DNA of 64,000 nucleotides. Origin: a virus. The DNA lies in IMG/VR virus record IMGVR_UViG_3300046314_000148, positions 48,246 through 112,245 of that record, one strand, 5' to 3'. Numbering within the stretch: position 1 is the stretch's first letter; each line of letters begins with the position of its first letter. Both the position numbers and the translations under genes were made by a program. Under the pieces are notes generated by a model. It made no database searches and was not told where the DNA came from. It saw only the letters and a list, made by a program, of their open reading frames with translations. Of this stretch, positions 9,271-37,342 are shown piece by piece.

Positions 9271-9342
9271 ACCAATATAGCTCAACGGAAGAGCATTTGC
9301 CTACGAAGCAAAGGGTTAAAGGTTCGAATCCTTTTATTGGTA
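9271..9342 (+). tRNA. tRNA-Arg(ACG)
   Basis: ACCAATA/TATTGGT acceptor; TTTGC-CTACGAA-GCAAA. Confidence 0.9.
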
Positions 9343-9367
9343 CTGATAACTAAATATAGAAATGCAA

Positions 9368-9450
9368 GGAAGTGCGTCGCAGTTGGAGAGGCGAGGCGGT
9401 CTGTAAAACCGTTGGGTGCACCTAAGTCAGTTCGAATCTGACCACTTCCA
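9368..9450 (+). tRNA. tRNA-Tyr(GTA)
   Basis: GGAAGTG/CACTTCC; GCGGT-CTGTAAA-ACCGT; long variable arm. Confidence 0.9.
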
Positions 9451-9452
9451 CT

Positions 9453-9526
9453 GTGTACGTAGTTCAATGGTAGAACGCTTGGTTGTGGTCCAAGGAATGG
9501 GGGTTCAATTCCCCTCGTGCACCCCA
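9453..9526 (+). tRNA. tRNA-His(GTG)
   Basis: CTTGG-TTGTGGT-CCAAG; C73 plus encoded CCA. Confidence 0.9.
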
Positions 9527-9599
9527 GCTCTTCTAGCCCAATGGCAGAGGCAACGGCTTCAAAACCCGTTTAGTGTAAGTTCGAATCTTACGAGGAGCA
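9527..9599 (+). tRNA. tRNA-Leu(CAA), short variable region
   Basis: GCTCTTC/GAGGAGC; loop TTCAAAA; C31-C39 mismatch. Confidence 0.8.
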
Positions 9600-9601
9600 C
9601 A

Positions 9602-9694
9602 AGTTACATAGTATAGTAGGCAGTACGCCATAGTCTATAAACTGTATGCAGCAGATGGCTAGGGGAAGCATGGGTTCGAGTCCCATTGTAACTA
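9602..9694 (+). ncRNA. tRNA-like RNA with enlarged, non-canonical anticodon arm
   Basis: Perfect AGTTACA/TGTAACT acceptor, D-arm, ATGGG-TTCGAGT-CCCAT T-arm; ~20 extra nt in anticodon arm. Confidence 0.7.
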
Positions 9695-9723
9695 GGTAAG
9701 GTAATGATCTGCCTTACCGATCT

Positions 9724-9795
9724 ACTCCTATGGTGTAATTGGCAACACTACGGTTTTTGGTACCGTCATTTTTGGTTCGAGTCCAGATAGGAGTG
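9724..9795 (+). tRNA. tRNA-Gln(TTG)
   Basis: ACTCCTA/TAGGAGT; ACGGT-TTTTGGT-ACCGT. Confidence 0.9.
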
Positions 9796-9878
9796 CTTTG
9801 TTACACAATTGTAATACAAATAAAAATATTCTATTAAACAAATCTGTATAATAGATCTACAACTATAGAGGAGATAAT

Positions 9879-10100
9879 ATGACAACGGTTTATACTAAGC
9901 CAGCATGCGTCCAATGTGACCAGACAAAGAAGCTATTGGATAAGAACGGGGTAGAGTACACAACCATTGATATCTCTAAGGACCAGGAAGCATTCGACAA
10001 GATTGTTGCCATGGGATTCATGTCAGCACCAGTAGTTATTTCTGGAAATGATAGCTGGGCAGGGTTCCAGCCAGATAAAATTAATTCAATAACTGCTTGA
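9879..10100 (+). CDS. nrdH: NrdH-like glutaredoxin
   Basis: TVYTKPACVQC...APVV...WAGFQPDKI. Confidence 0.9.
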   Translation: MTTVYTKPACVQCDQTKKLLDKNGVEYTTIDISKDQEAFDKIVAMGFMSAPVVISGNDSWAGFQPDKINSITA

Positions 10101-10153
10101 CAACTAGCCTCCACCTAAGTATAATAGATATACAAAAGGTATGAGAGGACCCG

Positions 10154-10330
10154 ATGCACGAAGATATCCTAGGCGTAGTGTTTGGCATTGACCACATTAT
10201 TGCAGAGTTCTTTTGGAATGCCATATTCGCAATAGCAGTATTTGCATTTTCAAAAGCCAAGGCTAAGCGTAGCCTACACAAATACATTGATGATAAGCAC
10301 GGTGTAACACACCAGAAGGATGAGTACTAA
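10154..10330 (+). CDS. Small membrane protein (58 aa)
   Basis: Own translation MHEDILGVVFGIDHIIAEFFWNAIF...; GAGG RBS. Confidence 0.55.
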   Translation: MHEDILGVVFGIDHIIAEFFWNAIFAIAVFAFSKAKAKRSLHKYIDDKHGVTHQKDEY

Positions 10331-10331
10331 T

Positions 10332-10622
10332 ATGAGCATTAGACCACTAGAAGATAAGGTAGTCCTAGAGCTGCCAAAGGCAGAAGAAAAGACAACTCAG
10401 TTTGGCCTTATCATTGCAGGAACAGCAGATGAGAAGCCACAGGAGGCAATTGTAGTGGCTGTAGGTCCAGGAGCCAAGTTTGCAGACGGTAGTACCATGG
10501 AAATGGCAGTAGAGCCAGGAGATAAGGTTATCTTTTCTAAGTACCAGGGTACAGAGGTAGAACACGAAGGCAAGAAGTATCTAATCGTTGCCTACCGAGA
10601 CATCTTTGCAGTGATTGGATAG
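10332..10622 (+). CDS. groES: Co-chaperonin GroES
   Basis: IRPLEDKVV...EKPQEAIVVAVGPG...GDKVIFSKYQGTEV. Confidence 0.95.
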   Translation: MSIRPLEDKVVLELPKAEEKTTQFGLIIAGTADEKPQEAIVVAVGPGAKFADGSTMEMAVEPGDKVIFSKYQGTEVEHEGKKYLIVAYRDIFAVIG

Positions 10623-10626
10623 TATA

Positions 10627-10824
10627 ATGGGAAGAATTCCAGACATCAACTACGCAGATGAATATGAGCGTGGTTATGAGGCTGCACTACACGCACTGCA
10701 TGATGAATTTGAAAAGGAATACTTTAAGATTGCCGATGAAGATCCGTACTATGCGTACTACATCAAGCATGTTCTAAATGTTATTCGTAAAAAGATTAAT
10801 CCACTTATCGCCATCGATGAGTAG
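10627..10824 (+). CDS. Hypothetical protein
   Basis: ORF in operon. Confidence 0.5.
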   Translation: MGRIPDINYADEYERGYEAALHALHDEFEKEYFKIADEDPYYAYYIKHVLNVIRKKINPLIAIDE

Positions 10825-10979
10825 GCATAGAGCAACCAGCCACTGGTCCTACCTGTGGGGCATTCTTGATTACCCTATTCCAGTTTATAAGCATTGGCTT
10901 CTGAATAGCTGGAACTACTTTACAAAACCAAAGATATCTGCTAAGGTAGCAGAGTACACAAAAAGACTTAGGAGACTCC

Positions 10980-11273
10980 ATGACAGAGCCAATTGAGGGC
11001 CAGCTAAAAGGCATAGGACTTCGTTTAGACCCACAAGAGATACTAATCGCACCGCATGAAGAAGGTGGTCTCAAGTGGGGCTATACGATTATTGATAAGA
11101 CCCACATTCCTACCATGTATATGGGTGGTGAGTGGAAGAATGTTGTCCCAGAGGGTGTCTGGCTGCAAATGCTAGACAACTGGGATGCCATTGCCAAGAC
11201 TGCAAAAGAAGTTTTGGCAGAATATCCAGAGTATCTAGAGTATCCAGAATTGAAGGCACTTGTAAATGACTAA
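10980..11273 (+). CDS. Hypothetical protein
   Basis: AGGAG RBS; overlaps thyX start. Confidence 0.6.
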   Translation: MTEPIEGQLKGIGLRLDPQEILIAPHEEGGLKWGYTIIDKTHIPTMYMGGEWKNVVPEGVWLQMLDNWDAIAKTAKEVLAEYPEYLEYPELKALVND

Positions 11274-11955
11274 TATTAAAGTTCTAGACGAAGGGTACGT
11301 AAGACTAGTAGACACTTTGGGTGACGATCTTTCAGTAGTAAATGCTGCTAGAGTATCTTACGATAAAGAGTCATCAGAGTTTGAGCCACGTGATGAGAAG
11401 CTAATCAACTTCCTGGTACGTGAAGGTCATACCAGTCCATTCAGACACGCAGCACTGACTTTCGAAGTCTATGCTCCGCTGTTCGTTGCACGTCAGTGGT
11501 GGAAGTATGCTGTTTCATCTAGTCACGTAGACGATCAGAACGGATGGAATGAATCATCTCGCCGCTACATCACAGAAGATGAGCAGTTCTACATTCCTGG
11601 ACCAGACGAGTGGCGTAGCAAGCCAGAGAATAGCAAGCAGGGTAGCGGTGAGCCAATCAACGAAAATTTGGGGCAGTTCTACTTCAAGAAGCTAATCGAA
11701 ACTGTAGCTAGCGGTACCAGCCTATATCACCAGGCAATGGATGACAACGTTGCTCCAGAGATTGCACGACTATTCTTGCCAGCATACGGAATGTATGTAC
11801 GTTGGCGTTGGACCGCATCTCTACAGAGCGTAATGACTTTCCTAGACCAGCGACTCGGACATGATGCCCAGGTTGAAATCCAGGAGTATGCAAAGGCAGT
11901 AGAGAAGTTGACAGCAGAAGTATTCCCACAGACCATGAAGGCAGCAAGACAGTGA
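11266..11955 (+). CDS. thyX: FAD-dependent thymidylate synthase
   Basis: VNAARVSY, GHTSPFRH, PLFVARQW, NESSRRY, AQVEIQEYA. Confidence 0.95.
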   Translation: MTNIKVLDEGYVRLVDTLGDDLSVVNAARVSYDKESSEFEPRDEKLINFLVREGHTSPFRHAALTFEVYAPLFVARQWWKYAVSSSHVDDQNGWNESSRRYITEDEQFYIPGPDEWRSKPENSKQGSGEPINENLGQFYFKKLIETVASGTSLYHQAMDDNVAPEIARLFLPAYGMYVRWRWTASLQSVMTFLDQRLGHDAQVEIQEYAKAVEKLTAEVFPQTMKAARQ

Positions 11956-12491
11956 TTATTGGATTAAGCGGATATGCCCAGTCGGGCAAGGACACCGTTG
12001 CTGACTACCTAGTTAAGCAGCATGGCTTTACCAAGGTATCTTTTGCAGATCCTATTAGACAGGCACTAATTCTTCTAGATCCAAAAGTAACTATCGCTGA
12101 CATGCAGGGGGTTCCTTTATCTACTGCCGTTGCTGGCTTGGGTTGGGAGAATGTAAAGGTTGATAGTCCAGACGTTCGTGGCCTGATGCAGCGTATGGGC
12201 ACAGAAGTTGGTCGCCAACTATTTGGTGAAAATTTCTGGGTTAATCAAGCTATGGCAAAAGCCGCAGAATACCCAAGAGTAGTTTTTGCAGATGTCCGCT
12301 TCGAGAACGAGGCAAAATCGATTCTCGAGGCATCTGGGGCCGTCTGGAGGGTATCTAAGCCAGGTGTTTATGCAGCAAATGGACACATATCGGAGACTTC
12401 TTTAGATAATTATTCATTTACTAAAGAGGTAAATAATATTGGTTCTTTGGAGGACCTATATGAGACTGTAGATTATCTTATTAGTCATTAG
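11952..12491 (+). CDS. Deoxynucleoside monophosphate kinase
   Basis: IIGLSGYAQSGKDT, SFADP, LMQRMGTEVGR, DVRFENE, HISE. Confidence 0.9.
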   Translation: MIIGLSGYAQSGKDTVADYLVKQHGFTKVSFADPIRQALILLDPKVTIADMQGVPLSTAVAGLGWENVKVDSPDVRGLMQRMGTEVGRQLFGENFWVNQAMAKAAEYPRVVFADVRFENEAKSILEASGAVWRVSKPGVYAANGHISETSLDNYSFTKEVNNIGSLEDLYETVDYLISH

Positions 12492-12496
12492 TCTTA

Positions 12497-12570
12497 GGGG
12501 TGTTAGCTCAGCTGGTTAGAGCAGCGGACTCATAATCCGTCGGTCGTGGGTTCAAGTCCCACACACCCCA
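12497..12570 (+). tRNA. tRNA with CAT anticodon (Ile2 or elongator Met)
   Basis: GGGGTGT/ACACCCC; GCGGA-CTCATAA-TCCGT. Confidence 0.9.
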
Positions 12571-12574
12571 CTCT

Positions 12575-12648
12575 GCTCCAGTAGCTCAGTAGGTAAGAGC
12601 ATCAGACTTATAAACTGAAGGCCGATGGTTCAATCCCATCCTGGAGTA
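12575..12648 (+). tRNA. tRNA-Ile(TAT)
   Basis: GCTCCAG/CTGGAGT; TCAGA-CTTATAA-ACTGA. Confidence 0.85.
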
Positions 12649-12691
12649 CTTATGGTGTATTATAGTTATTAGACTATAGAAAGAAGAAGAT

Positions 12692-13219
12692 GTGGACATA
12701 TCTATAAACAGTTTTCCAAGAAGTGGATCACAGTTTCTTAAGTTTAATCTAGATAATATGATTGGACATCGAAGAGTTGCCAAAAATCCACCGAATCTTC
12801 ATAAGATACTTAAAGATAGAAGCTACTTTCAGGTTGTTGTTGTCAGAAATCCGAGGGACACTGTAATATCCTGCATCGCTCATTCGGAATACCTTAGACA
12901 CGGGAGCAGCAAGAACATAAAACAGGTGCTAGTAGACACCTTGCGAGAGTACTGTAATGCAATAGATAACTTTTTGGAAAATGTACAGCATATAAATCTT
13001 TACGATTTTGAATATCTGGATTGGGCAGTAATTGATATTGCAAACAAGGCAAAGATTGATATTCCAGACAGCTTTGTCCTTACTCCAAAGCACTACAGTG
13101 TGAGCGACACAGATTTTTATCAGGACCTATTGGATGCAGACATAGATGACTCTTTATTTGAAGAGGCAAATAAGAAGTACGAGTCAATCCTAAGCTTCTG
13201 CCAGAGACCTGCAGATTAA
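12692..13219 (+). CDS. Sulfotransferase-like P-loop protein
   Basis: SFPRSGSQFL (5'-PSB-like) and VVRNPRD..IS (3'-PB-like). Confidence 0.7.
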   Translation: MDISINSFPRSGSQFLKFNLDNMIGHRRVAKNPPNLHKILKDRSYFQVVVVRNPRDTVISCIAHSEYLRHGSSKNIKQVLVDTLREYCNAIDNFLENVQHINLYDFEYLDWAVIDIANKAKIDIPDSFVLTPKHYSVSDTDFYQDLLDADIDDSLFEEANKKYESILSFCQRPAD

Positions 13220-13914
13220 TTAGAGCTAGCAGTACTTTCATATATAGATGGTTCTGGAAACATCTCCATCAGCATATCAAGAATCTTTTCAAACGAGCTG
13301 TCTTCTGTGGACAGGAAGTAGGATTCCCCACTCAGGAAGTCGTATGACCTAGAGCTCATCCTTCCCTTAGAGTATACCTTTACATCATTGCTTATCGATC
13401 CACCGATACCAAAGATGTTTCCATAGTTTGATCTTTCTAAGTATGGCATAGTGAGCACCTTGTCAAGCAGTATCTTATTCATGACCATCGGTACGTGGAT
13501 GTCATAGTCTAGTGGATTTGGAATGCCAAGCTTAACCAGTCTCTTGTGAGTGCTTGCCAGCAGCCTAGTGTACACTGAGCTTGGGGTTAGCTTCTGATAC
13601 AGGGACACACGATCTTCCAGCAGTCCACCATGCAGCACTGGAATAGAGTCTATCTTTTTAGTGATAAAGAAATCATCGTGCATTGAAACAAAGTCATCAG
13701 ATATTTCATCGCTGCTCACTATGGCAGACATGCACTTCTTTATATTATCAAACTTATACTGGGTATCTCGAATTGGAATAAAGTTTCCAGTGTACCACTT
13801 AGGCTTATAGCCAATGACCCATATGTTTCCAGGTGGTAGGTTTTCAACAACAGATCGAATCGAGTATCGAAGCTCTTCGTTATCACCTTTACGACAGATG
13901 TAAACGTAATCCAT
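13216..13914 (-). CDS. Stealth-like (hexose-1-phosphate transferase-like) protein
   Basis: MDYVY, EELRYSIRSV, ISDDFVSMHDDFF, HVPM. Confidence 0.65.
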   Translation of the reverse strand: MDYVYICRKGDNEELRYSIRSVVENLPPGNIWVIGYKPKWYTGNFIPIRDTQYKFDNIKKCMSAIVSSDEISDDFVSMHDDFFITKKIDSIPVLHGGLLEDRVSLYQKLTPSSVYTRLLASTHKRLVKLGIPNPLDYDIHVPMVMNKILLDKVLTMPYLERSNYGNIFGIGGSISNDVKVYSKGRMSSRSYDFLSGESYFLSTEDSSFEKILDMLMEMFPEPSIYESTASSN

Positions 13915-14948
13915 TATTCTCCGTGGTGATTAGGAAAAACCTTCGCAGTGTTCTCACACATATCATCTACAAGATCAACGAAGGAACGCTTTCTAACCCA
14001 TCCAAGCTTGGTAGAAGCCTTTGTGCAGTCTCCTAGAAGGGTCTCTACCTCTGCTGGTCTAAAGAACTTAGGGTTAATTCTAATAACAGTCTTGCCAGAA
14101 ATGGTGTCAACACCAACCTCATCTAGGCCTTCACCCTGCCACTCGATCTTCATTCCGAAATAGTCTCCAGCCTTCTCAACAAACTCTCTGACCGAGTGCT
14201 GCTCTCCAGTAGAGATTACATAGTCATCGGGGGCATCCTGCTGTAGCATTAGCCACATTGCGTATACGAAATCTTTTGCATGCCCCCAGTCTCGCATGGC
14301 ATCTAGGTTGCCCAGCTCTAGGACATCCTGTCTTCCAACACTAATGTTGTTTAAACCAAGAACGATTTTGCTTGTAACAAAGTTTACTCCACGTCTCGGG
14401 CTCTCGTGATTGAAGAGAATGCCGCTAGACGCATGCATACCGTAAGACTCTCTATAGTTCTTGGTAATCCAGTGGCCATATAGCTTTGCTACACCGTAAG
14501 GAGAGCGAGGGTAGAAGTCTGTAGTTTCTTTCTGAGGTACTTCTTGGACAAGGCCAAACATCTCAGAGGTGCTTGCCTGATAGAAGCGAGTCTTATCCTT
14601 TAGTCCTAGAACTCGGATTGCCTCTAAGATTCTTAGTGGCCCAAGGGCATCTGTCTCAGCAGTAAACTCTGCGGTATCAAACGATACCTGGACATGGCTC
14701 TGAGCACCCAGGTTATAGACCTCATCTGGCTCAATGATCTTAATAAGATTAGTTATTGACGCAGAGTCTGTCAAGTCTCCTTGGTGGAGAAATAGGCTGT
14801 CATTATCAAGAATGTTCTTGATTCGTGTAAAGTTATCAGTCGATGATCTACGAACAAGTCCGTGTACTTCGTATCCGATGTTTAGCAGTAGTTCTGCCAA
14901 GTATGAACCATCTTGTCCAGTGATTCCCGTGATGAGAGCTTTCTTCAT
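13914..14948 (-). CDS. gmd: GDP-mannose 4,6-dehydratase
   Basis: [49 protein letters not shown]. Confidence 0.97.
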
Positions 14949-24446: not shown

Positions 24447-24477
24447 TTATACACATTTATACACAGATTTATCCACA
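24447..24477 (+). promoter_or_regulatory. Three tandem DnaA boxes
   Basis: TTATACACA 24447, TTATACACA 24457, TTATCCACA 24469. Confidence 0.65.
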
Positions 24478-25132: not shown

Positions 25133-25229
25133 TGTCTTTGTATATAGTACATGCTTGACAAAGCTTGAAATATGTGGTCGCCCCCAGAAAAGCCCTCTTG
25201 TCAAGGGCTAATCCAGTTTCTTTTATAGA

Positions 25230-25665
25230 TTACTCATCAAGGCTACCGAGCAACTCGTCTAAGTCCTCGAATGTCAAGTCCTCGTAGCCAAGACCAGCAA
25301 GCAATAGGTCAAACGATTCCTCGATAAAGCGAGTAGCAACGGGTGTAGTCTTGACAATGTCGTTTGCGATAGCGTAGGCAAGTGGCAAGCCAATGTCGTT
25401 GTATTCTACAAAGTCAGCAAACTCCTCGTCTTGACGATAGTTGAGCCATAGGTCAGCAAGGATACTTGCCTTGTTATCGAATGTAGTTGCCATTTTGTTC
25501 CTTTTCGTATTTAGCGGATTCTGCGATTTCTTGTAGTCTGCGGTATGTTATGTTATTTGTTCTGGCGAAATAGATTCCTAGTTGCTCAATGTCTATCGTT
25601 AGGTCATTTATCAACTTACTTATTCTCTCTGCCAGTTTTTCCTCTACCGATTCTTTTCTGGGCAT
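25230..25665 (-). CDS. Two small hypothetical genes (25230-25493, 25474-25665)
   Basis: ORFs with RBS; TTGACT-N17-TACAAT promoter upstream. Confidence 0.6.
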
Positions 25666-25857
25666 TATGTTTCCTATTCAGTTATGCTCTTATTGTATCA
25701 AAACTAGAGGGGGAAGTCAAGAGTATTACGTCCTAACTTCCCCCCTGCTTTGCACAGACAACCAACCCCTTAGTCTCTGTGCTATGGCGAGGAGTAGTCT
25801 CAACCCACCAAATCTATTAAGTTATATATTAATTATATCTCAAAACGGAGGTGCCCG

Positions 25858-27060
25858 TTAGAACAAGACTTCTTCAGCGTACGTAGGCAGGCCATAGAAG
25901 ATGGCACGGAGCCTGTCGCTTAGCATGTCATCCTTATCAGCAATGAAGCCATTCAGGCCATACCATAGGTCTGGTTCGTGGTCCTGAAAGTATGGGTCAT
26001 TAAGAATAAGATTATTAGTCTCAGCTTGTGTTAGCTCGATCGGTTCTCCCAACTCTTCGTGGGTAGTTGCTCCTTGGTATTCATTCACCTGATAGATATG
26101 AATGTACCATGGACCACTGTGCTCGTAGATAGGGAATGCATCTGCATCTAGGCCTACCTCCAACTCACGCTGGAAGATGTTTAGGTCATAGTCAATCTCA
26201 TTACTCATTTGATTCCTTCTTAGCACCGATGGTAACATTGGTATGTACGTGGTAGTACTTCTCTACAAGTAGTCTGGCATTCTCCCAGTACTCTAGTTCG
26301 ATGGCGGTATCCTTATGCATTTGGACTAGGTCATCCACTAGTGCACGGACAATGCGTTCCTTGCTGTGCAAATCAAAACCATTAGACATAGTGCAAACCT
26401 TCTTCTTCAGTCTCGTGCTCTGGACATCCACAGCAGTTCAAGCAAAACTCTTTCTGGTCAGGACATCTAAACACGTCCATGATTACTTCGCTATCTGAAG
26501 TTAGATAAACCTGACAGTCATCACAGATTTCTACTTCATCCTCGTCTAGCAGTTGGAAGACTTCTCCAGCCTCTACGTGGTTGTAGAACTTCTCAATCAG
26601 TTCTTTCTCCCACTGTGGGTCAATTAGCAGGGTGTATTTCTTAACTAACAATTGGGGCCTCTTCTCCATAGATGTCCTTCAATGCTACCACAGAGTCACA
26701 GTCAATGTCAATCATGCCTTCATCGCATTCTTCACAGGCAGGGTCTGCTTCCCAATCTGTCTCTTCAGTACGGCAGTCGCAGTCACGGTATACCCAAGTA
26801 GGAATCTCGGTGTACTCATCTTCCCAAGGATTCTCGGTGATGTAGTACTGGATACGGTTTACAAAACTATAGCCAGCGACAATGTAAGTGCCACCGTCGC
26901 CATCAATCTCAGTCCAGATAAACTTAGGGTCATAGTTGCGAATGAACTCCTGCTCTTCTCCATAGGTCTCGAAGGCAAAGAAATCTAAATCATTCTTAAA
27001 TTTATTATTGATTGGCTTGAAGGTATCTACCCAAGATTGGTAGGTATAAAACTTTGACAT
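25858..27060 (-). CDS. Four acidic hypothetical genes (25858-26208, 26201-26389, 26382-26669, 26641-27060)
   Basis: Overlapping ORFs with AAGGA RBS. Confidence 0.6.
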
Positions 27061-27069
27061 GGGGTCTCC

Positions 27070-27576
27070 TTAGAAGTGGAAGTCTACAGGTATAAGATAC
27101 CATGAATCATCAAGTTTGTCAAGCATATACTGGAAATTAGTTGAGCCAGTTTCTGCGTCGTAGAAGTATGAGTTGAAGTCCCAGTTACCAGCCAGCATGT
27201 CAATACACTTAGACAAAGAATAAAGACTGAAAGCATAATCAGTGTTACCCTGATACTTATCTAACTCAGTATTGATATCTAGAGTTGATAGGTTTTTGCG
27301 GTATACGTCAAACTCTTGCTTCCGTGCCTCAATGGCCCAATCAATCTTTTCCTGAATGCCTTCACGGCCATGCTTAGTAAAACTAATAATGTGATTAGGT
27401 GAACTCTTATAAGGGTCACCGTCTACAAAACGACCTCCGCCAATAACGAACCAGTCATACCATGAATTATGTGCATACTCATTGCCACCCATTTCTGAGT
27501 TTAGAGTATCTTCGGCTACTCGCATAGCCATGTCTTCATCTTCTGCTCTTACAGCAATGTATTGTAAAACGTGCAT
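27070..27576 (-). CDS. Phage hypothetical protein (WYDWFVIGGGRF...VDFH type)
   Basis: Motif pattern; TTGACA-N17-CATAAT promoter. Confidence 0.65.
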   Translation of the reverse strand: MHVLQYIAVRAEDEDMAMRVAEDTLNSEMGGNEYAHNSWYDWFVIGGGRFVDGDPYKSSPNHIISFTKHGREGIQEKIDWAIEARKQEFDVYRKNLSTLDINTELDKYQGNTDYAFSLYSLSKCIDMLAGNWDFNSYFYDAETGSTNFQYMLDKLDDSWYLIPVDFHF

Positions 27577-27619
27577 TGGGGTTCTTTCTTTTGGGGTATA
27601 TATATATTATGACATGTGG

Positions 27620-28117
27620 CTAGGCATTTGTCAAGTCTTTTTCAAAAGAATTTAGATAGTCGTCTAGCATAGGCAACCCGAAGATCGAATACTCTTCCGT
27701 AATGCCATTGTACTTGCTAATAAACTTATTAGTCTGGAAGTCAATCTCATAATACCCCTCGCAGAATAGGTCATCCGCTGCGAAGTCAATGGAGTTTACA
27801 AGTGGCACGTTAGTCTTGTCACGAACTACCTCTAGGATTTCACATCCAGTATCCCTGGTGAGCGACGGGTATGACTCTTTGAAAGCGTCTACGCCAGCTC
27901 GGTTAGTAACCTCATTATAAATGGAATCAACTTCCTCATCCGTAATGAAACGGGTAAACTCAATGCCAGCCTTTAGGTAGTTCACATTCTGTGAGTCAGA
28001 CAGGAAGTGCAGAATCCATGCACCTGTGTGTGAAGGGTAGCCATCCCATTGGCCATACTGTGCAATCTTAATCTCGCCTAGTTCATTCTTTACAACTGTT
28101 AGGTTACGTGTACCCAT
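27620..28117 (-). CDS. Phage hypothetical protein (MGTR...QWDGYP type)
   Basis: Start reassigned to ATG 28117 after GAAAGGA RBS. Confidence 0.65.
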   Translation of the reverse strand: MGTRNLTVVKNELGEIKIAQYGQWDGYPSHTGAWILHFLSDSQNVNYLKAGIEFTRFITDEEVDSIYNEVTNRAGVDAFKESYPSLTRDTGCEILEVVRDKTNVPLVNSIDFAADDLFCEGYYEIDFQTNKFISKYNGITEEYSIFGLPMLDDYLNSFEKDLTNA

Positions 28118-28277
28118 GCTGGGTCCTTTCGTTGGGGTTATCGAATACTCTATTCTCTCACAGAACTGGGGAAAAGTCAAGCCTATCGTAATTGAATTTA
28201 TAATGAGTTGCTATACTAGTTAGTTTGTGGCCGCCCCAGATCCCCAGCTTTGTCAAGCCAGGGACCAGGCGTGTCGC

Positions 28278-29285
28278 TTATGCCATAGCGACTTGCTGAA
28301 CAATCTTTAGCAGACGGTTCTTCTCGGCGTTCACCATTGGGTCAAAGCCTGAAGCCGAAGCCAAGATAGATTCGTTAGAGCCACCACGAGAGTTGCGATA
28401 CCAGTCAAGACGCTCGGTTAGTCCGTTCAAAGCACCCCAAGCAGTTCCAGCAATCATGCCGTTTTGGTTGCCACGATAGATAGACTGAATCAAGTCAATC
28501 TTGCCGTCATACTTCTTCTGTGAACCCTTAGCGTCCTTAGCAGGGGCAGGGTAGGCAAGGGCAACAATCTCCTCGAACTGACGCTCGGTGATAGTCTTTT
28601 CAATCATAGCCTGTGCCATCTTGTCGAACTCGTCCATGTATTTGTTAGCCAAGCCAAGAGCCTCACGAGCAACGGCAATCTTGCCTTCTGCTGTCTGAGT
28701 GTGGCGAATCTTGAAAGACTGCTTAGGACCTTTTCGGTTAGCACCAAGAGCAAGGTTTAGAGTGTTAGCACATACAACACGAACAGGGGTAATGCTTGCC
28801 TGAATAGCAACTGAACCATCGTGAGAGGTGTTGATTAGCAGATAGGTGTTGATTTTGTCACTAACGCCAGTAGGGTCTAGGATAGTCTCACGCTCAAGAG
28901 CAAGTGAACCGAATACCTGACGACCACCCTTGATAGAGCCAGCAGTCTCCCAGCGTCCTCCGCCATCGAGAATGTTGTCACCAAAAGCAAACAGGTCTTC
29001 GTTCTGAAGCACCTTGTAACGCTCGCCAACAACACCAAGAATGTCGTTCTGGGTCTTGTCGAATGGGTTAGTTCGGGTAACGAAAGAATAGGTCTTGTCT
29101 GAGTTGAAGCCATCAGGGGTAGCAACATCTTCTAGACGAACATTCCAGTTGTCAAGGTGTGCCAACTTTAGCATTTTCTGAGTAGTGACTTCTTCGGTAA
29201 AGACTGTTCCAAGTCCATGCCATGCTGGCTCTCGCAATGAAGCGAAAGCGGTCTGTCCATCTACTGATTCTAGTTCGTGAGCCAT
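28278..29285 (-). CDS. DUF932 / TIGR03299 phage-plasmid-like protein
   Basis: REPAWHGLG, LQNEDLF, WETAGSIKGGRQVF, NTSHDGS, TPVRVVCANTL, IRHT. Confidence 0.9.
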   Translation of the reverse strand: MAHELESVDGQTAFASLREPAWHGLGTVFTEEVTTQKMLKLAHLDNWNVRLEDVATPDGFNSDKTYSFVTRTNPFDKTQNDILGVVGERYKVLQNEDLFAFGDNILDGGGRWETAGSIKGGRQVFGSLALERETILDPTGVSDKINTYLLINTSHDGSVAIQASITPVRVVCANTLNLALGANRKGPKQSFKIRHTQTAEGKIAVAREALGLANKYMDEFDKMAQAMIEKTITERQFEEIVALAYPAPAKDAKGSQKKYDGKIDLIQSIYRGNQNGMIAGTAWGALNGLTERLDWYRNSRGGSNESILASASGFDPMVNAEKNRLLKIVQQVAMA

Positions 29286-29437
29286 GGGGAGCCAACTTTC
29301 TTTAGGGGTGATTAGTTATAGTATTATTTTACAGGATACCACCGACAATGTCAACTCTATTTAGCAAACATTTTGGGGACATCTTAAAGCTATCGTAAAT
29401 AGTTGACTTTTGATCTCGGATGGGGGCGGCCCAGAAA

Positions 29438-29468
29438 AGTGGCCAGTTTTTCGTCATGGCCAGGACGT
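29438..29468 (-). ncRNA. Candidate H-type RNA pseudoknot, copy 1
   Basis: CGTC-CTGGCCAT-GACG-AAAAAC-TGGCCA. Confidence 0.6.
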
Positions 29469-29477
29469 TTCATACCC

Positions 29478-30326
29478 CTATGAAAACATGCGACGTGATT
29501 CTCTCTCGAGCACATCTAGTTTGTCAATTAGCTCCGACAGTAGGTCCCTGTAGTAGCCTGCATCAAAGTTATATTTATGAGACTCAAGATATTCATCATG
29601 CAGTTCAACAGTGTACTGTCTGATTAGTTTATTTAGTTTACTCTTCGTCATCGTGTCCCCAAAAGTTATTAGAGCAGTCTAGGCAAAGGCCTAGTTCTTC
29701 TGCATGGATGTCTGCGTCAACCATTGTTCCACAATCAACGCAAGGTAGTTCACTCGTCTTCTTCGTCATCTTCATCCTCTTCTTCTGGCAGTTCTTCTAC
29801 GGTAATTTCATCTACCTCTGCAGAATGGCTCCAGTTCTCATAGTTCCAGCCTGCCTTCTCGGCTTCTTCCTCGTTTTCGAACTCATCTTCAGTCCAGTAT
29901 TCAACGACGGTCTTTACATAAAACTTTGGCATTCGCTTATCCTAACATCATCATCTCGAATTGTAGCCAGTCATCAAACTCATACTGGCAATCATTACAT
30001 AGGGAGTGAACCGAGTCTACTGGGTCATAGTCTAGGGTTTCTTCGCATTGATAGCATTTGTTCATAGTGTCTACTTTAGCATTACCCTCGGACATTTAGC
30101 AACTCCCATCGGTAGGAATCTGCTCTTCTGGCACACCCATCATTCTTAGGACAGACTGGCTTCTGTTGATGAGTCCCTCGAGGTAGTCACCAAACGAATC
30201 GTTGATGTCTAGACCCTCTTTCTCATCGATGAACATAGCGGTATCACTAAGTAGATAGTTGATAATCTCTTCGTTAGTCATTGCCTTAGCCAACTGTTTC
30301 CTCCTCGACCTGAATTGACCAGTCAC
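29478..30326 (-). CDS. Cluster of small hypothetical genes (29478-29651, 29750-29932, 30096-30326 and others)
   Basis: ORF track plus own translation MTKSKLNKLIRQY... Confidence 0.55.
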
Positions 30327-30617
30327 CGTTAGGCAGCCATTCGTGCTGGGCGATGGCTTGTGAGATTACTTCATCTTCACTTAGTTTCTCATCTGACTCA
30401 ACTTCATACCAAGCAGAGTATTCAATCTCGTAGCGGTATCCCATTAGTTGTTCTCCTCTTCATACTGGCATAGGCAAGGTGTAACACGGATAAGTCCCCT
30501 GCTTTGGTGAACAAGGGCATAACCCTCGCATGCTTCACAGAAATAGGTTGTGTCTTTGGTCAAGGTCATAGGGGTTTCCTTTCGTTGTGCTTCCATTATA
30601 GGGGTAGGGTCAGACAT

Positions 30618-30818
30618 TTAGTCAAGCCACTTAGAAACATCTTGTCCATTTAGAACTGCTTCCATGAACGGGAACTTCTGGTAGTCTGGTAGGTCTTCCA
30701 AAACCTCAAGGTACTCTTCTGGGAACTCGTTGATGTCGGTAACAATAATGTCATCTCCACCCCAGTTGCCATCACGAGATACGTATAGAGCGTGTGGTGC
30801 AAACTTGGTGTAAGCCAT
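30618..30818 (-). CDS. Hypothetical protein
   Basis: AAGGAG RBS, own promoter at 30845. Confidence 0.6.
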   Translation of the reverse strand: MAYTKFAPHALYVSRDGNWGGDDIIVTDINEFPEEYLEVLEDLPDYQKFPFMEAVLNGQDVSKWLD

Positions 30819-31074
30819 GATTTCTCCTTTGATTGATTACTATAACTATACAGCTACCCTCGGACATTATGGGGATTTAATCGGCGTGTCGTAAATAAAA
30901 GTTTTTCTGGCCAGGAGGGGGCGACCCCAGATCACCACAAATGTCAAGCTTGGTTTTTGACAGATGCGGTGTGGGGTGCCAAGAGTCCTTGCGGTTGTTC
31001 CTGACTTGCTTCGTTATCGTGTTAGCCCTCACGCTTGTAAGCCGTTGCCTAGGACACTTACAAGAGGTTTGCTG

Positions 31075-31104
31075 TGAGCAGTTTACCTAGACTTGCTCAG
31101 GTCT
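31075..31104 (-). ncRNA. Candidate H-type RNA pseudoknot, copy 2
   Basis: AGAC-CTGAGCAA-GTCT-AGGTAAAC-TGCTCA. Confidence 0.6.
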
Positions 31105-31116
31105 TAGTTCATCTTG

Positions 31117-31566
31117 TTAGATGAGGTCAATAATGGAGGAGTAGGTGCTTGCGTTTACTTCCTCCTGAGTAGTCATACGCAAGATGCGTAGGTTCTGCTC
31201 TAGGACTGCCTTGCGGTTTAGGTGCTTGTTGCCAATCCACTCAGACTGGTTAGGCTTGACTGGTGCTTCAGGTCGTTTAGGGAAGCCAGCAATCTTGTCA
31301 GCATCAAAGTTTAGTTCCATACGACCAGAGTGTCCAAAGTTTAGTCGAATGTCTGAGTTGTAGTCATAGCCAATCTTATTAGCGTTCTTAGCAACAAACT
31401 CTGAAACAAACTTAGCAACCTTCTTCTTGTATGCTTCAGTTTCCTTTTCATACTTCTCAAAGTCAGCAGGGTAGGAAGCGACATCAGCGTCAATCTTAGC
31501 GATAGCAGCCTCAATCTGAGAAATGATAGCGGAGGTAGGAACTTTTACAGAGATAGCACGAGCCAT
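31117..31566 (-). CDS. Hypothetical protein
   Basis: 149-aa ORF with GAAAG RBS. Confidence 0.7.
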   Translation of the reverse strand: MARAISVKVPTSAIISQIEAAIAKIDADVASYPADFEKYEKETEAYKKKVAKFVSEFVAKNANKIGYDYNSDIRLNFGHSGRMELNFDADKIAGFPKRPEAPVKPNQSEWIGNKHLNRKAVLEQNLRILRMTTQEEVNASTYSSIIDLI

Positions 31567-31602
31567 TAGGGGTATTCTTTCTTTAGGGGTTGTTTAGTTA
31601 GT

Positions 31603-31637
31603 TGGGCAGTTTTTCCAAAAGACATACCCAGGTCTTT
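31603..31637 (-). ncRNA. Candidate H-type RNA pseudoknot, copy 3
   Basis: AAAGAC-CTGGGTAT-GTCTTT-TGGAAAAAC-TGCCCA. Confidence 0.6.
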
Positions 31638-31656
31638 ATCTCTAACTAAATAGAGT

Positions 31657-31812
31657 TTACTTGTCTGCCTTTACGGTAGACCAACGAGGTGAACCATTCA
31701 CATCAAGACGAACTCGGAACGAGCCGTTCTTGTTTGCTACTACTTCCTGAATAACGCCAGATACCTTTGACTTGGCGGTGGTGAACTGTGAGCCAACAGT
31801 TAGAGTGTTCAT
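31657..31812 (-). CDS. Small hypothetical protein (51 aa)
   Basis: Own translation MNTLTVGSQFTTAKSKVSGVIQEVVANKNGSFRVRLDVNGSPRWSTVKADK. Confidence 0.6.
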   Translation of the reverse strand: MNTLTVGSQFTTAKSKVSGVIQEVVANKNGSFRVRLDVNGSPRWSTVKADK

Positions 31813-32375
31813 TTTGCTTCCATTCCGATACGGGTGTATCTGTGTGTTTTGTGATTTACAACTTTTGTTGTATTACTATTATGACAGAAAGAATAGAGAA
31901 TGTCAAGCACATTTGATAACTAAATGATAACAACATTTCTTTTTTATTCTTCGTGTTTCGTTCTCTGTTCTTCTGTATGTATCTATTATGGGGCATAATG
32001 GTGTGATTGTCAAGTCTAAATGCCCCTTTTTGTTTGTGGGTTTTCACAAAATCTGGGGAAAAAGATTGTTCATCTTAAACTTGACAAGACTGATCGTTTG
32101 GGGTCGCCCCCTTTCGGGGGACGTGTCAAACACGCCAGTCAAAAACAACAGCTAGAATCATCCATGCAACCATTAAAGCAAACGGACCTGCGAATAGGAA
32201 ACATCCCAATAGCATTGGGTCACCGTTTACTTCTTGTTCTTGTTCTGCCATTTCTCTATTGTCCCTCCAAAGATACCGTCAAAAATCATTAGTACAGCGA
32301 GAATAATCGGGAATAGCAAGTATAACGCAAAAAGGCCTAAGATAGCAAAGATAAATAGCCATAGGATTATTTCCA

Positions 32376-32897
32376 TTATTGGGCAGACCCCCTAACAACA
32401 ATCCAGATTAGAGCCTGCATTGAGCGTGGCGTCATCCCATACTTAGCTGCAACTGTAGTTACAGCGTCTGCCATAACCTTATACTGGGCTTGAGTAGGTG
32501 ACTTCTTTTCAATACCTAGGGCACGTAACATCCATACGTCAATAACAACGGCATTCTCATTGCCTGCAATAGCACGTGCAAAGGCGTTAGTCTTCTGACC
32601 CTTGAGAGCGTCAAATCCCATAGTGAGAGCATTGTTAGCCATTACGATATTGTTCTTTAGGCAAGTTACTGGTTCCCCTAGTGAGAATTGAATAGCACGT
32701 GCAACATTTACTGACCAACGTTCACGTGGTGAGAATGCCGAGACAACACTTGCCCCGACGTCAAGGGTAGTGTCAAGGTTACGTGCAACCTGTTCTGCAA
32801 TACGTTCAGCGTCAACATACCATTTACTGGCTTGTTCAACCTGACCGAATGTAGCCTTCTTAGCAATATCCGAATAAATCTTTACGTAGTTAGTCAT
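32376..32897 (-). CDS. HhH DNA-glycosylase-fold-like phage protein (DUF7178-like)
   Basis: WY..A...SAFSPRERW..N...GQKTNAF...AVVIDVWM...MQALIW. Confidence 0.6.
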   Translation of the reverse strand: MTNYVKIYSDIAKKATFGQVEQASKWYVDAERIAEQVARNLDTTLDVGASVVSAFSPRERWSVNVARAIQFSLGEPVTCLKNNIVMANNALTMGFDALKGQKTNAFARAIAGNENAVVIDVWMLRALGIEKKSPTQAQYKVMADAVTTVAAKYGMTPRSMQALIWIVVRGSAQ

Positions 32898-33159
32898 TGG
32901 GGTATTTCTTTCTCTTGGGGTTGTTAGATTAGTTTAGCAAACTTATTAGATAAAGTCAAACACATCGCCATCGAATCCGCCAATATCTAGATCCGCCATT
33001 AGTTCGCTTGGGCTGATCTCACCCTCGGCCATCATTGCGAATAGTTCCCTTACGTACTCTTCATCCATTATTTTACCTTATCTAGAATTATCATTAGTTC
33101 TACCAACTGTTCATCAGTTAGTTTATCTATTGCATCATTATTGATTACATTATCAAACA

Positions 33160-33432
33160 TTAGTCTTCCTCTTCCATGCACCATGCGTCTAGGCGGTATG
33201 AATTGATTACATCAATAGCAGATACCTTATCGCTGCCACGGAATGATACGCCATCGGGAAGGGTAATCGTGCGGTTGTAGTCATCTTCCCAGTAAGCGTC
33301 AATTGCTTCAACGGCAGTAGGAATCATGCCTAGTGGAATCGGTGGATAGCAATTGCTTCTAAAGTGCATTGCCAACTGAGTTTCTAGTGTTTCGTTTAGT
33401 CCTGCAATATCCATTGCGGTTGCCATGCCCAT
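33160..33432 (-). CDS. Hypothetical protein
   Basis: HFRSNCYPPIP; TTGACA-N17-TAAACT promoter. Confidence 0.65.
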   Translation of the reverse strand: MGMATAMDIAGLNETLETQLAMHFRSNCYPPIPLGMIPTAVEAIDAYWEDDYNRTITLPDGVSFRGSDKVSAIDVINSYRLDAWCMEEED

Positions 33433-33767
33433 AGTGAGCCTTTCTTTTGGGGTTATAGAATAAGTTTACAGGATTAGTTACTCATTGTCAAGGGCTTTAC
33501 GCAACTTTTCTTGGCGTGTCCCCTTGTATTTTTTAGGCGTGACGACTTGCTTCTTGCCTGCCTTTAGCATATTGTGGAATAAGGCTTGCGACTCAGCCTT
33601 GCGTCTCGCTTCATTTCTTTTACCTAACATACTAAAACTTTATCACGAACCTCAGACATTTTGGGGAATTCGGGGAAACTTTCTTAACTATCTTAAACTT
33701 GACAAATAGGGTAAAAAGGGGCGGCCAGATCCAGGAGCCTTTGTCAAGCTCCCAGTCTGGCGTGTCG

Positions 33768-33938
33768 CTAAAGTCCCTTTACGGCATTACGAAAACGAAT
33801 CTCATCAAAGCGAGGATTGTCACTCTTGAACATAGAAACGAAATCGCCAACCATCTTTGTGAATAGGGCAGGGTGGGTCTTGTCGCTTGCGTAGTGTAGA
33901 ATCTTTGCGGTTTCAACATAGTCTTTACGGGTCATCAT
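33768..33938 (-). CDS. Small phage protein (MTRKDY...DNPRFD type)
   Basis: Own translation, 56 aa. Confidence 0.6.
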   Translation of the reverse strand: MMTRKDYVETAKILHYASDKTHPALFTKMVGDFVSMFKSDNPRFDEIRFRNAVKGL

Positions 33939-33940
33939 TA

Positions 33941-35650
33941 TTAGTTACCACGGTTTTCTGCTAGGCGTAGGATAAACTGGGCAGTCTTTAGGTCAACTGC
34001 GGCTGAGGCATAGCCAACCATCGTGGCTAGGGCTAGGTCATTACGGTCACCAAACTCTGCGTTTAGAATAGCAAGAGCCTTGTCCATTAGTTCTAGTGAG
34101 TTCTTTTCCATTTTCATTTCCTGCTCTTTAGATGTTTTTAGTTTAGCAGTAGGGTCAGACATTTATTTGAATGACTCAACCATTATGATTGGGTATTCCA
34201 GTCCAAACTTGAAAAGGTCACGGGTATCGACAGCGGACACGGTCATTACTCCGTCAAGTAGGAATGTAACCTTTAGCATTTCTGACTTTGGCATTAGTTG
34301 CCCTTTCTTTTTGATTATAGATTTATCTTAGCATGGGGGTCAGACATTTAAATAAAGTCTTCGACATCCAAACCAAGATAGACAATGGCTTTTGCTAGAG
34401 GTAGCAGTCCATCAAGTTCATCGCAGTTTGGGCAAACAACTGTGTCGCTAGTGAAAACACCCTCGCAGTATACGCACATCTTGTCCATTTAGTTTTCCTT
34501 TCTTCTGATACTAAAAGACTAGCACAAGCCACAGACATTTATAGCCAAAACACGACTTTTTTCTTTGTAAGTTTCTACAAGCTTTTGGGGGATCTTTTGT
34601 AGACTACGTAAGTTATCCACAGAGTTATCCACAGGGGGCGACCCCGAAGGGGCCGATTTGTCAAATCAATCGAATGACCATTGGGAAGCATACATCTCCC
34701 CGATAGCCTCGTCACGAAGGTGGCGGTCTTCCGCCTGTCGCAGATACTCCTTCTGCTCAGGGGTCATGGCTGCGTCAAGGGCAGCCTGCTCCTCCTGCCA
34801 AGCGAGGAAAGCCTCGAACTCAGCCTGGACTTCTTCTTGGGTCATCTCTGATAGAAACATAGTTTACCTTTCGTTATAAGATAAATCTAGCATAGGGGTC
34901 AGACATTGTCAAATCCAACACGCCAACATTCGGGGGGAAGATCTCGATCATCTTAACTTGACAGCTTGGATCTTTTGGGGCCGCCCCTTTCGGGGTAGTT
35001 TGTCAAATCGGACACGCTGTTAGGCTAGAACCTTATCTAGAACCTTGGCAATCTGAGGGTAGAACACTAGGGCAACCGCTAGAGTGATACCAATCTTTAC
35101 ACCAGCAAAGAAAACATTTTCAACGGTATCGCTAGGCTCTGCCCCTGCTAGCAGAATGAACAGATACAGGGCTAGATAAGTGCCAGCAACAACAGGGATA
35201 GCAACAACACCAGCGATTAGGCGACGGATAGCAAACTTCATTGGGTTACTCGCTCTCAGGGGTAGTGAATAGGTCAGACGGGTTAGATAGCATTATGTCA
35301 ATCTGATAAATCAGGGTTTCCATTTCTTCGATAGTCATTAGATAACCTCGAACTCTAGGATTTCGTTAGCAAAGAACTTGTCGCTGTAAAACTTCATTAG
35401 CATTTCAGCGTGGATTGGGTCATAGGATGGGGTGATGATTGAGCCGTCTAGTAGGGTTACTTTGATTGTCATTTCTTTTTCCTTTTCTCTTTATGCTATA
35501 AGTCTAGGGTATGGGTCAGACAATGTCTAGTTAGACACGCCGTATTGTGCTACGCAAGACTCGCAAGCCTTTTCGTTGTTGTAGAGGTTACCCTCGCAGA
35601 TTACACAGTGTCCTGTTGCTACATTTACCTTTAGTGAGTTCATCTCGAAC
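33941..35650 (-). CDS. Series of small genes, most with own promoter (incl. 33941-~34117, 34666-34860, membrane protein 35020-35241)
   Basis: ORF track; GAAAGG RBS and TGTCTG promoters. Confidence 0.55.
34613..34633 (+). promoter_or_regulatory. Two perfect DnaA boxes adjoining the repeat core
   Basis: TTATCCACA at 34613 and 34625; similar pair at 35746 (CTATCCACA) and 35766. Confidence 0.65.
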
Positions 35651-35950
35651 TCCTTTCTTTTTTATTTCTTTTTCTTTATCTATATATATTCAAACATACA
35701 TTAGGGGATTTGTCAAGTCTATTTAGGTAAACATTAGGTTAACAACTATCCACAGATCGATCAAGTTATCCACAGGGGGCGACCCTAAAAATAGCTATTT
35801 GTCAAATCAGACACACCCATAGGGTCAAGATCCCGTTACAAAAACGTTATAAAAAACTTTTGCGACACGCCGAGGGAAAATTTGACAAATGGTTATTAGT
35901 ATGATTAACTATATATAGATAAAGATAGTTACTAAAAGAAAGGAGCCAAC

Positions 35951-36397
35951 ATGATTGGTTCACTAGAAAAGATGGTTATGTTCCCTAACGCTCAGCGTGG
36001 ATTCTCAGCAGTTATCGTTGAGACAGGAACAATCGCTCAGGCAAGAGAGATTGCTTACAAATGGGTTGCTCAGGGTTGCCCTCTAGGCGAGGGACTAATG
36101 GAATCCTTCCCAGAAATCAAAAGGTTCATTAGAGAACGCAAGTTCTAAATGTCCGAGGTATGAAATACAATAAGTTTAGATAGATAAGGATAGATTATGA
36201 AACAGACACTAGGTCAGATTACAGATGAGATTATGAAGGCTGTCAAGGCTTATCACGTTGCGTCAATGGGTAACGACACTCGAGAGATAGCATACGCTCA
36301 AGGCGAGTATCAGCGAATGATTCGTGAACACGGTGCTAAGGCTGTTGATACTGCTGTTCGCTACTACAACGAAAACGTTATCGGAAAGGCTAAGTAA
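35951..36397 (+). CDS. Two small hypothetical genes, divergent from the early block (35951-36148, 36197-36397)
   Basis: GAAAGGAG and AAGGA RBS; TTGACA promoter at 35882. Confidence 0.65.
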
Positions 36398-36987: not shown

Positions 36988-37342
36988 TTAGATCAATCCA
37001 TGCTCTTTGAGCTTGATCATAACAAGTTTAGTAGATATATTTAGCTCGTTAGCGATCTCGCCAACTTCTTTTCCTTGAACCAGGTATGCATTTGTCATCC
37101 AATCAAGGCTATTATGTAACTTTGCGTCTTTATCAGTCATGATTGTCCTATCGATTGGTATTAATGATGCCATACTCTAGAAGAGTGTCGTACAGTAGAC
37201 CATTTACGTAGTTCAACTGTTCCTTTTGTGTAATAATCTGCTGCTCTAGCACATCTGATGGTACATTGTGCTGGGCACCCATCTCACGATTCATATTATT
37301 GATAACCTCTGTCATCACATTAACAACTTCATCACGTAGCAT
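36988..37342 (-). CDS. Two small genes: HTH-like (36988-37173) and hypothetical (37148-37342)
   Basis: GEIANELNISTKLV HTH-like segment; AGGAG RBS. Confidence 0.55.

Follow-up and report, generated by a model that had tools for sequence, protein, structure and literature searches.

What kind of site is a ~49-bp inverted repeat that recurs nine times between the small genes of a phage early region? The question arises from a stretch of 64,000 nucleotides (hereafter, the window) that forms the last 64 kb of a 112,245-bp virus record in IMG/VR (IMGVR_UViG_3300046314_000148; 43% G+C; 100% complete according to CheckV). The genes from ~35.8 kb down to 23.4 kb of the window are all small and all encoded on the minus strand, and the elements were therefore read on that strand, the coding strand of the block. 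A previous sequence-only reading described the element as TTGACA arms in inverted orientation around a GC-rich core and regarded it as a binding or recombination site for a dimeric protein that allows the shuffling of gene cassettes or, alternatively, as a nick or pause site for stepwise DNA entry. In our analysis, the element emerges most probably as a boundary or shut-off site at which a protein docks, rather than as the target of a recombinase. Specifically, we favor a site at which a sigma-A-region-4-type reader docks and which would insulate or shut off early transcription units, and we assign this reading a rough probability of 0.4.

The nine GC-rich cores were found at the positions reported previously, and all of them lie within 25155–35805. 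A scan for TTGACW followed by 12–14 bases and a core-like 9-mer gave 17 matches that represent 13 distinct half-sites, every one inside this interval, whereas shuffled sequences gave an average of 0.09. A regular-expression scan of the whole 112,245-bp genome detected no element outside the 25.15–35.8 kb block. The complete arm-core-arm form is present in four copies (25155–25204, 32081–32129, 33699–33747, and 34958–35006), which are 48–50 bp long. The other five are one-armed; the copies at 28227, 30918, 34635, and 35776 have the coding-strand arm only, and the copy at 29423 has the opposite arm only, which reads TTGACT. With all genes of the block on the minus strand, what was previously termed the right arm lies upstream with respect to transcription. 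As described previously, the core is found in either orientation when read on the coding strand, with TCG/CGA and CGG/CCG centers. The described location between a stop codon and the next promoter applies to eight of the nine copies, which begin 0–25 nt past a stop codon, but not to the copy at 35776, which is located in a divergent promoter region heading the block.

For comparison, 80 related loci were retrieved around the gene of a 335-aa DUF932 protein that belongs to the block. In these loci, the spacing between TTGACA and the core's G-run peaks sharply at 13–14 nt on both strands, and the half-site consensus is the same on both strands: cTTGACAA, 12–13 free bases, T, a G-run, and a CG-centered hexamer. 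This identity indicates that the dyad is real at the DNA level. The arms are 18.5–19.5 bp from the dyad center, corresponding to approximately two helical turns, and this geometry, together with the common consensus, makes the proposed binding of a symmetric protein or complex plausible. Among the one-armed elements of the related loci, 64 have the coding arm only and 27 have the opposite arm only, which excludes RNA pairing between the two arms. The palindrome-centre finder was confounded by an adjoining C-run/G-run hairpin, which produced a secondary peak at 10–12 bp. The spacers had been described as free in sequence. They are not fully so, as they carry GATC and often a C-run that can pair with the G-run of the core. 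An origin from a transposable element resembling a miniature inverted-repeat transposable element was ruled out, since the spacers are unrelated between copies.

Each half-site has the anatomy of a sigma-A promoter up to the −10 position. The arms have the extended sequence cTTGACAA in common with 314 real promoters in the same loci, and the central hexamer of the core is located 17 bp past the TTGACA box, the optimal −35/−10 distance and within the 16–18 bp spacer range of sigma-A promoters. The hexamer at the −10 position is YCGNCC in all nine copies and is never the TAnnnT of a sigma-A −10 box. The sequence-only reading had named an explanation of the arms as active −35 boxes as one that would speak against its proposal. 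This explanation holds for one half, the box being that of the 314 promoters, and fails for the other, as no −10 box follows the arms. A normal promoter, either TTGACA-N17-TAnnnT or of a TGTC type, lies 70–150 nt downstream of every copy.

The tetranucleotides CCGG, GCGC, and CGCG are all absent from the whole 112-kb genome, where ~245 of each are expected. The retention of GC palindromes in a genome purged of these sites points to selection on the core, and we count it in favor of the docking site. Relatives avoid other sets of 4-bp sites (for example, GGCC instead of GCGC), and their core centers change accordingly. The core is GGAGCGCC in relatives that allow GCGC and avoid GGCC, a perfect GGGGCGCCCC in one relative that allows GGCGCC, and a G-run joined directly to a C-run in relatives that allow GGGCCC. 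Such differing sets among related phages imply different host restriction systems. An asymmetric core center is present in both orientations within one genome, and orthologous copies switch among the allowed centers. A co-evolving reader as the sole cause of the genome-specific cores was considered and is weakened, because the core type tracks the restriction-avoidance set and because of this switching.

The early block (25230–35650) is also depleted in GATC, AGCT, AATT, ATAT, TTAA, and GTAC, with observed/expected ratios of 0.22–0.36 compared with 0.67–1.5 in the rest of the genome. For GATC, the depletion applies outside the elements. Eight of the 15 GATC sites of the block in the window fall inside elements, and the frequency per element is 0.79 compared with a background of 0.108 per 49 nt (a seven-fold enrichment), with peaks 8–15 bp on either side of the center.

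From the observed anatomy, symmetry, spacing, conservation, restriction to one block, and likeness to a −35 region, we infer a binder and its action as follows. The site would be built as a host sigma-A promoter in which the −10 box has been swapped for a CG-centered GC palindrome that is unable to melt. Its full form would be mirrored, with two −35-type boxes (cTTGACAA) facing the core, each approximately two helical turns from the center. The arms would be bound by a sigma-A-region-4-type reader, either a small helix-turn-helix protein of the phage or the host RNA polymerase holoenzyme, the latter possibly together with WhiA and the phage WhiB. Once in place, the complex would be unable to open the DNA and could form a boundary between units by acting as a roadblock-type terminator, an insulator, or a shut-off operator of the early block. 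The release or the stabilization of the upstream transcript would be aided by an oriented RNA structure just upstream, whether a hairpin, a pseudoknot, or a C-run/G-run stem. A more specific version, which we put forward tentatively and regard as doubtful, is that the elements are promoter decoys that park the host RNA polymerase holoenzyme (through sigma-A region 4, perhaps with WhiA and the phage WhiB) as a symmetric roadblock or insulator between early units. The parked complex would not be openable, evolution could freely move the core center away from the restriction sites of the host, and the element would represent a new class of cis-element.

Two leads to the reader were obtained. The phage has a WhiB-family gene (2643–2819, plus strand; 44.9 bits, exceeding the Pfam cut-off). 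The C-terminal domain of WhiA recognizes GACA in the way that sigma-A region 4 recognizes TTGACA, and the docking site of WhiA and WhiB is located directly upstream of the −35 box (Lilic et al., PMC10243135). GTGTC, the complement of the WhiA motif GACAC, was found at most 17 nt upstream of 33% of the coding arms, 20% of the opposite arms, and 4% of the ordinary promoters. We take this possible connection of the arms to WhiA and WhiB as a lead and not as a test. The only lead to a phage-encoded reader is a 61-aa protein (36991–37173, minus strand) of a leftward operon just upstream of the block. It has sub-threshold matches to GerE/LuxR and sigma-70 region-4-like helix-turn-helix domains and is present in 11 related loci.

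Several observations weigh against the docking site. Among the gene families encoded within 10 kb of the 335-aa gene, none was convincingly tied to the element, co-occurrence being mostly due to clade effects; a 30-aa open reading frame (ORF) was the only family commoner in element-bearing loci (14 of 26, versus none of 17). Profile searches of the genome gave no match to Sigma70_r4, WYL (PafBC-like), ParB_N, or HNH. To our knowledge, the stable and functional trapping of RNA polymerase in a closed complex has not been established as a mechanism. The model leaves the enriched GATC without a role. The hairpin orientation bias described below (22 to 1) shows that part of the signal works in the sense of transcription, possibly as RNA. 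Finally, more distant relatives retain a GC-rich core after a 3′ RNA structure and lack the TTGACA arms, and the arms may therefore be a lineage-specific addition to an older function of the core.

The alternative that survives best, although we consider it unlikely, places the function at the RNA level. In this explanation, the element is a terminator lacking a U-tract, a 3′-end stabilizer, or a processing site, and the arms and core are by-products of stems. The position of eight copies immediately after a stop codon agrees with this, and a hairpin or pseudoknot is present upstream of eight of the nine cores. A C-run 3–9 nt upstream of the G-run and able to pair with it, usually around a GAAA loop, was found in 22 of 59 analyzable elements, while the mirror layout was found once. 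This C-run covaries with the core in one related locus (L093). TTGACA forms the loop of a stem of at least 7 bp in 14 of 99 distinct elements. The arm-enclosing stems contain 29 G-U pairs and 3 A-C pairs, which indicates that the pairing is specific to the coding-strand RNA. Their sequences vary between orthologues while the pairing is kept, and the folding z-scores of the arm-loop hairpins are −3.2 to −4.3. In some copies, an H-type pseudoknot takes the place of the upstream arm, and two copies (25174 and 29423) have TTTTCT after a stem. For nine orthologous copies that follow the 335-aa gene, RNAalifold returned no structure, since MAFFT aligned their stems in different registers, and per-sequence stems were used instead. 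Other observations weigh against an RNA-level element. Arm-enclosing stems of at least 7 bp are confined to the 14 elements mentioned above, and a consensus terminator scan detected no terminator at any element, TTTTCT after a stem being limited to the two copies just named. RNA explains neither the identical consensus and spacing of the half-site on the non-coding strand nor the existence of 27 copies that have just the opposite arm. GATC is symmetric about the core, and the copy at 35776 has no adjacent upstream gene. A likeness of the GACAA and GAAA loops to the nut-like boxB hairpins of lambda and P22 was considered and set aside.

The structures of the individual copies are as follows. 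In the two-armed dyad at 25155–25204 (core 25174–25185), the upstream arm on the coding strand is the loop of a 6-bp hairpin, followed by TTTTCT. The copy at 28227–28256 (minus strand; core and coding-strand arm) begins 21 nt past the stop codon of the 335-aa gene, and its arm is the loop of a ~17-bp hairpin with G-U pairs that ends in the G-run of the core. The copy at 29403–29457 (plus strand) consists of the core (29422–29432) and the plus-strand arm TTGACT, and an H-type pseudoknot followed by CTTTTCT replaces the upstream arm. At 30917–30947 (minus strand; core and coding-strand arm), the arm lies within a long hairpin, at the base of which ACCCCA pairs with TGGGGT of the core. The two-armed dyad at 32081–32129 has a CCCCC-GAAA-GGGGG hairpin that overlaps the G-run of the core, and the TGA within its upstream arm is the stop codon of an ORF (32126–32251). 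The upstream arm of the dyad at 33699–33747 is in a hairpin loop, and TTTTT follows the core on the coding strand. In the dyad at 34958–35006, a CCCC-GAAA-GGGG hairpin adjoins the core.

The remaining two copies contain DnaA-box-like sequences. In the copy at 34613–34664 (minus strand; core 34634–34645, coding-strand arm 34659–34664), the stop codon of the upstream gene is 1 nt ahead of the arm, and two consensus DnaA-box-like 9-mers (34613–34621 and 34625–34633) replace the downstream arm and abut the core. The copy at the head of the block (35746–35805, minus strand; core 35775–35785, coding-strand arm 35800–35805) has two DnaA-box-like 9-mers (35746–35754 and 35766–35774) in place of the downstream arm and, in its divergent promoter region, no adjacent co-directional upstream gene.

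Small H-type pseudoknots were also observed just past stop codons on the minus strand (29433–29470, 31610–31645, and 31075–31110). They consist of stem 1, a loop with bases of a GGGCA/GGCCA type, an A-rich linker, and the complement, and covariation among relatives is seen in both stems. Some relatives have a tRNA gene immediately after such a pseudoknot.

Less likely than an RNA-level element is a recombination substrate, that is, repeats serving mainly as cassette exchange points by passive homologous recombination, as proposed for T4-type promoter-early stem-loop elements (PeSLs), or by a dedicated recombinase. The sequence-only reading had proposed a binding or recombination site that allows cassette shuffling. 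No match to Phage_integrase (PF00589) or Resolvase (PF00239) was found in the whole genome, with positive controls, so that this record, rated 100% complete by CheckV, contains neither a tyrosine nor a serine recombinase match, nor one to HNH. Cassette shuffling as the main role is likewise not supported. The strings of gene families are collinear and the elements are positionally conserved among the window and four related loci (L001, L002, L008, and L023), without inversions. Whole-cassette presence/absence patterns between two elements numbered ~14, compared with 470 indel patterns without an element. Gene neighbors were nonetheless retained less often where an element is present. Adjacency was kept in 0.28 of the comparisons at element junctions, compared with 0.47–0.48 at tight junctions, promoterless gaps, and element-free promoter gaps. 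Per unique junction, the mean was 0.24 for element junctions and 0.38 for others (Mann-Whitney p = 0.008), in comparisons that are not phylogenetically independent. Most indel patterns nevertheless involve no element, and many element-free junctions are equally variable.

Some individual loci may reflect exchange at the elements. The single element of L001 matches the copy at 34977 in its left half (36/45) and the copy at 34635 in its right half (34/50), joined at the core, which fits an exchange within the cores that removed or added one gene cassette. Of the five indels that distinguish the window from L001, three are adjacent to an element. The 335-aa gene has an element on each side and is located before or after a block of small genes, depending on the relative. 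Occasional homologous exchange has been attributed to PeSLs (PMC4122927), and the repeats fit, at most, a similar passive role, which would be a side effect and not the selected function. The fixed arm-core spacing and the core that tracks restriction avoidance point to a selected molecular function and not to homology alone.

A site of DNA metabolism is improbable in our judgment, whether one that nicks or pauses the DNA during stepwise entry of the genome or an origin-like unit whose GC cluster restricts unwinding beside DnaA boxes. The block has its homologue in the terminal-repeat block of the BE-cluster phages described below, a repeat that has been likened to those of T5 and SPO1 (PMC5764925). 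DnaA-box-like 9-mers (TTATCCACA and close variants) are clustered at both ends of the leftward block (24447–24477, 34613–34633, and 35746–35774), with 8 matches in the window compared with 1.6 expected, and the GATC enrichment would also suit such a site. Seven of the nine copies, however, have no DnaA-like box; such boxes abut the core in the other two, and trio-like TAA/TAG repeats were noticed by eye at 35776 only. The genome has no match to a nickase, HNH, Dam, or N6_N4 methyltransferase, the 112,245-bp record has no end repeats, and neither a nick nor an injection stop is demonstrable from sequence alone. More improbable still are real promoters, in which a modified or unknown holoenzyme accepts the GC core as a −10 box and drives small RNAs or middle transcripts. 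In favor of this reading, the elements have a perfect −35 box at the optimal 17-bp distance from the core center, and the phage encodes WhiB, a sigma-A region 4 partner. Against it, the core has no A or T where bases must flip out, the mirrored arm would give antisense transcription into the upstream gene, every copy already has a normal promoter 70–150 nt downstream, and no phage sigma region 4 domain was found (a search that did not extend to other sigma domains or to phage RNA polymerases).

The block has a regulatory grammar of its own. It holds 11 of the 14 TGTCnGnn-N8-TAnnnT sites of the genome, all 8 GGCGTGTY boxes, and 7 of the 8 TTAMGA/C-run boxes. A representative of the promoter module that lies downstream of each element (34884–34956, minus strand) contains, in this order, TTAAGA, C-run, and GGCGTGT boxes and TTGACA overlapping a TGTC box, followed after 8 nt by TAnnnT. 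The eleven TGTCnGnn-N8-TAnnnT promoters (29347–36208, minus strand) have a geometry like that of PafBC and RecA-NDp promoters, often with TTGACA directly upstream, and several drive leaderless genes (e.g. 33630). Many 5′ leaders at 27576–33432 on the minus strand consist of AACCCC, an A-rich Shine-Dalgarno-like stretch with GAAAG, and CCCC right before the ATG, as observed upstream of 27576, 28117, 29285, 31566, 32897, and 33432.

Outside the block, the structural genes are at 45–64 kb of the window on the plus strand. The window contains 12 tRNA genes, and a search of Rfam detected tRNAs only and no other known RNA family in it. One 93-nt tRNA-like gene predicted by ARAGORN (9602–9694, plus strand; Rfam tRNA, 46 bits) has an undetermined anticodon and lies inside the tRNA cluster. 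No near-identical record was found by megablast against 50,697 phage records. The nearest cultured relatives of the capsid protease and of the 335-aa DUF932 protein are the Streptomyces phages of cluster BE. Together with the WhiB gene and the leaderless starts, these relatives point to an actinobacterial host.

The strict two-armed pattern is rare, with 7 stretches among 2.9 million viral contigs and no match in 596 Gb of bacterial genomes. This absence from bacterial DNA indicates that the element belongs to the phage lineage, and a host regulatory site borrowed by the phage was ruled out on the same grounds.

A related arrangement is present in cultured phages. The BE-cluster phages have two DUF932 genes per record, and in Streptomyces phage Jay2Jay (NC_029098) the homologue is one of 23 small genes that form a leftward block at the genome's left end. 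Jay2Jay has a 10.8-kb direct terminal repeat, which has been likened to those of T5 and SPO1 (PMC5764925). The order there is 3′ hairpin, GC dyad flanked by GTGTC and GACAC, and promoter, and the dyad pattern was found at ~15 sites between 0.75 and 11.5 kb. All except the 11.5-kb site recur in the right-hand repeat copy, and none was found in the ~111 kb between the repeat copies or in the control. Since both the DUF932 homologue and the dyads of Jay2Jay are in the terminal-repeat block, we regard the block of the window as the counterpart of a terminal-repeat early module. No published description of GC-rich dyads in BE-cluster terminal repeats was found.

Repeated intergenic control sites have been described in a few model phages and include the stoperators, the phiC31 inverted repeats, and the PeSLs. 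Compared with sigma-A/sigma-70 promoters and with bidirectional promoters that share a −10 region, the window element has the same −35 hexamer with its extended consensus, the same 17-bp distance, and the same mirror symmetry about a central hexamer. It differs in having a G-run, a CG center, and a C-run instead of TAnnnT, and its hexamer positions overlap by 3 bp instead of 5. The element is constructed differently from the known control sites, in that the geometry of a host promoter is copied and mirrored and an unmeltable GC palindrome occupies the position of DNA opening. It also provides a clear case of a functional site reshaped by restriction avoidance, as the core center varies with the 4-bp sites purged in each lineage.

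The stoperators are the closest working analogue. The stoperator consensus of phage L5 presumably has letters in common with the −35 box of the early promoter. Like the stoperators of cluster A mycobacteriophages, which are bound by the L5 repressor gp71 (PMC9283540), the window elements occur in many copies in the short intergenic gaps of an actinophage and have lineage-specific variants, and a block of elongation as well as initiation has been proposed for stoperators too. The element nevertheless falls outside this class, as a monomer binds the stoperators, which are short and asymmetric. They are 13-bp sites that are distributed genome-wide in temperate phages with a known repressor gene (PMC9283540), while the window element is a ~49-bp GC-core dyad confined to one block of a phage with no sign of lysogeny and no repressor found. 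In the 48–50 bp symmetric dyad, the adjoining hairpin is the only oriented part.

The T4-type PeSLs (PMC2839356, PMC4122927) resemble the window elements in combining terminator-like and promoter modules between small early ORFs of a plastic region, where indels may tend to abut them, and no dedicated recombinase is needed in either case. As in PeSLs, a stem-loop is followed by an early host-type promoter between small ORFs. The comparison made by the sequence-only reading is therefore apt for the whole intergenic module of RNA 3′ structure, dyad, and promoter. Most gene gain and loss here, however, occurs away from the elements. There is no sequence relation, the hosts belong to another phylum, and PeSLs have no promoter-mimicking GC-core dyad.

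The pre-early modules of SPO1 and T5 consist of short units, each with its own strong host-type promoter. The T5 pre-early region presumably also contains DnaA boxes and repeats, and we know of no repeated GC-core dyad from the terminal-repeat modules of either phage. The block of the window is like these host-takeover or pre-early terminal-repeat modules, named in a previous study (PMC5764925), in its size class of ~10–13 kb, its small early genes, and its short units. The likeness to the dyads of Jay2Jay is more extensive. Both blocks consist of small leftward genes with a DUF932 homologue, both contain a repeated GC palindrome that is confined to the block (all but one of ~15 sites in Jay2Jay), and in both the copies follow a 3′ hairpin, precede a promoter, and have a GACA/TGTC motif in their flanks. 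Unlike those of the window, the Jay2Jay arms (GTGTC and GACAC) abut the core and have the opposite direction, with neither a 13-bp spacer nor a TTGACA box. Positions 1–14000 of Jay2Jay (53.5% G+C) contain no GATC, the opposite of the enrichment in the window elements. If RNA polymerase or a sigma-4-like protein docks at the element, promoter parts would provide a simple route to insulators and shut-off switches, and the site would offer a handle on early gene control in abundant, uncultured lake actinophages. Because the cultured Streptomyces BE-cluster phages have an analogous terminal-repeat dyad, bench testing is possible today.

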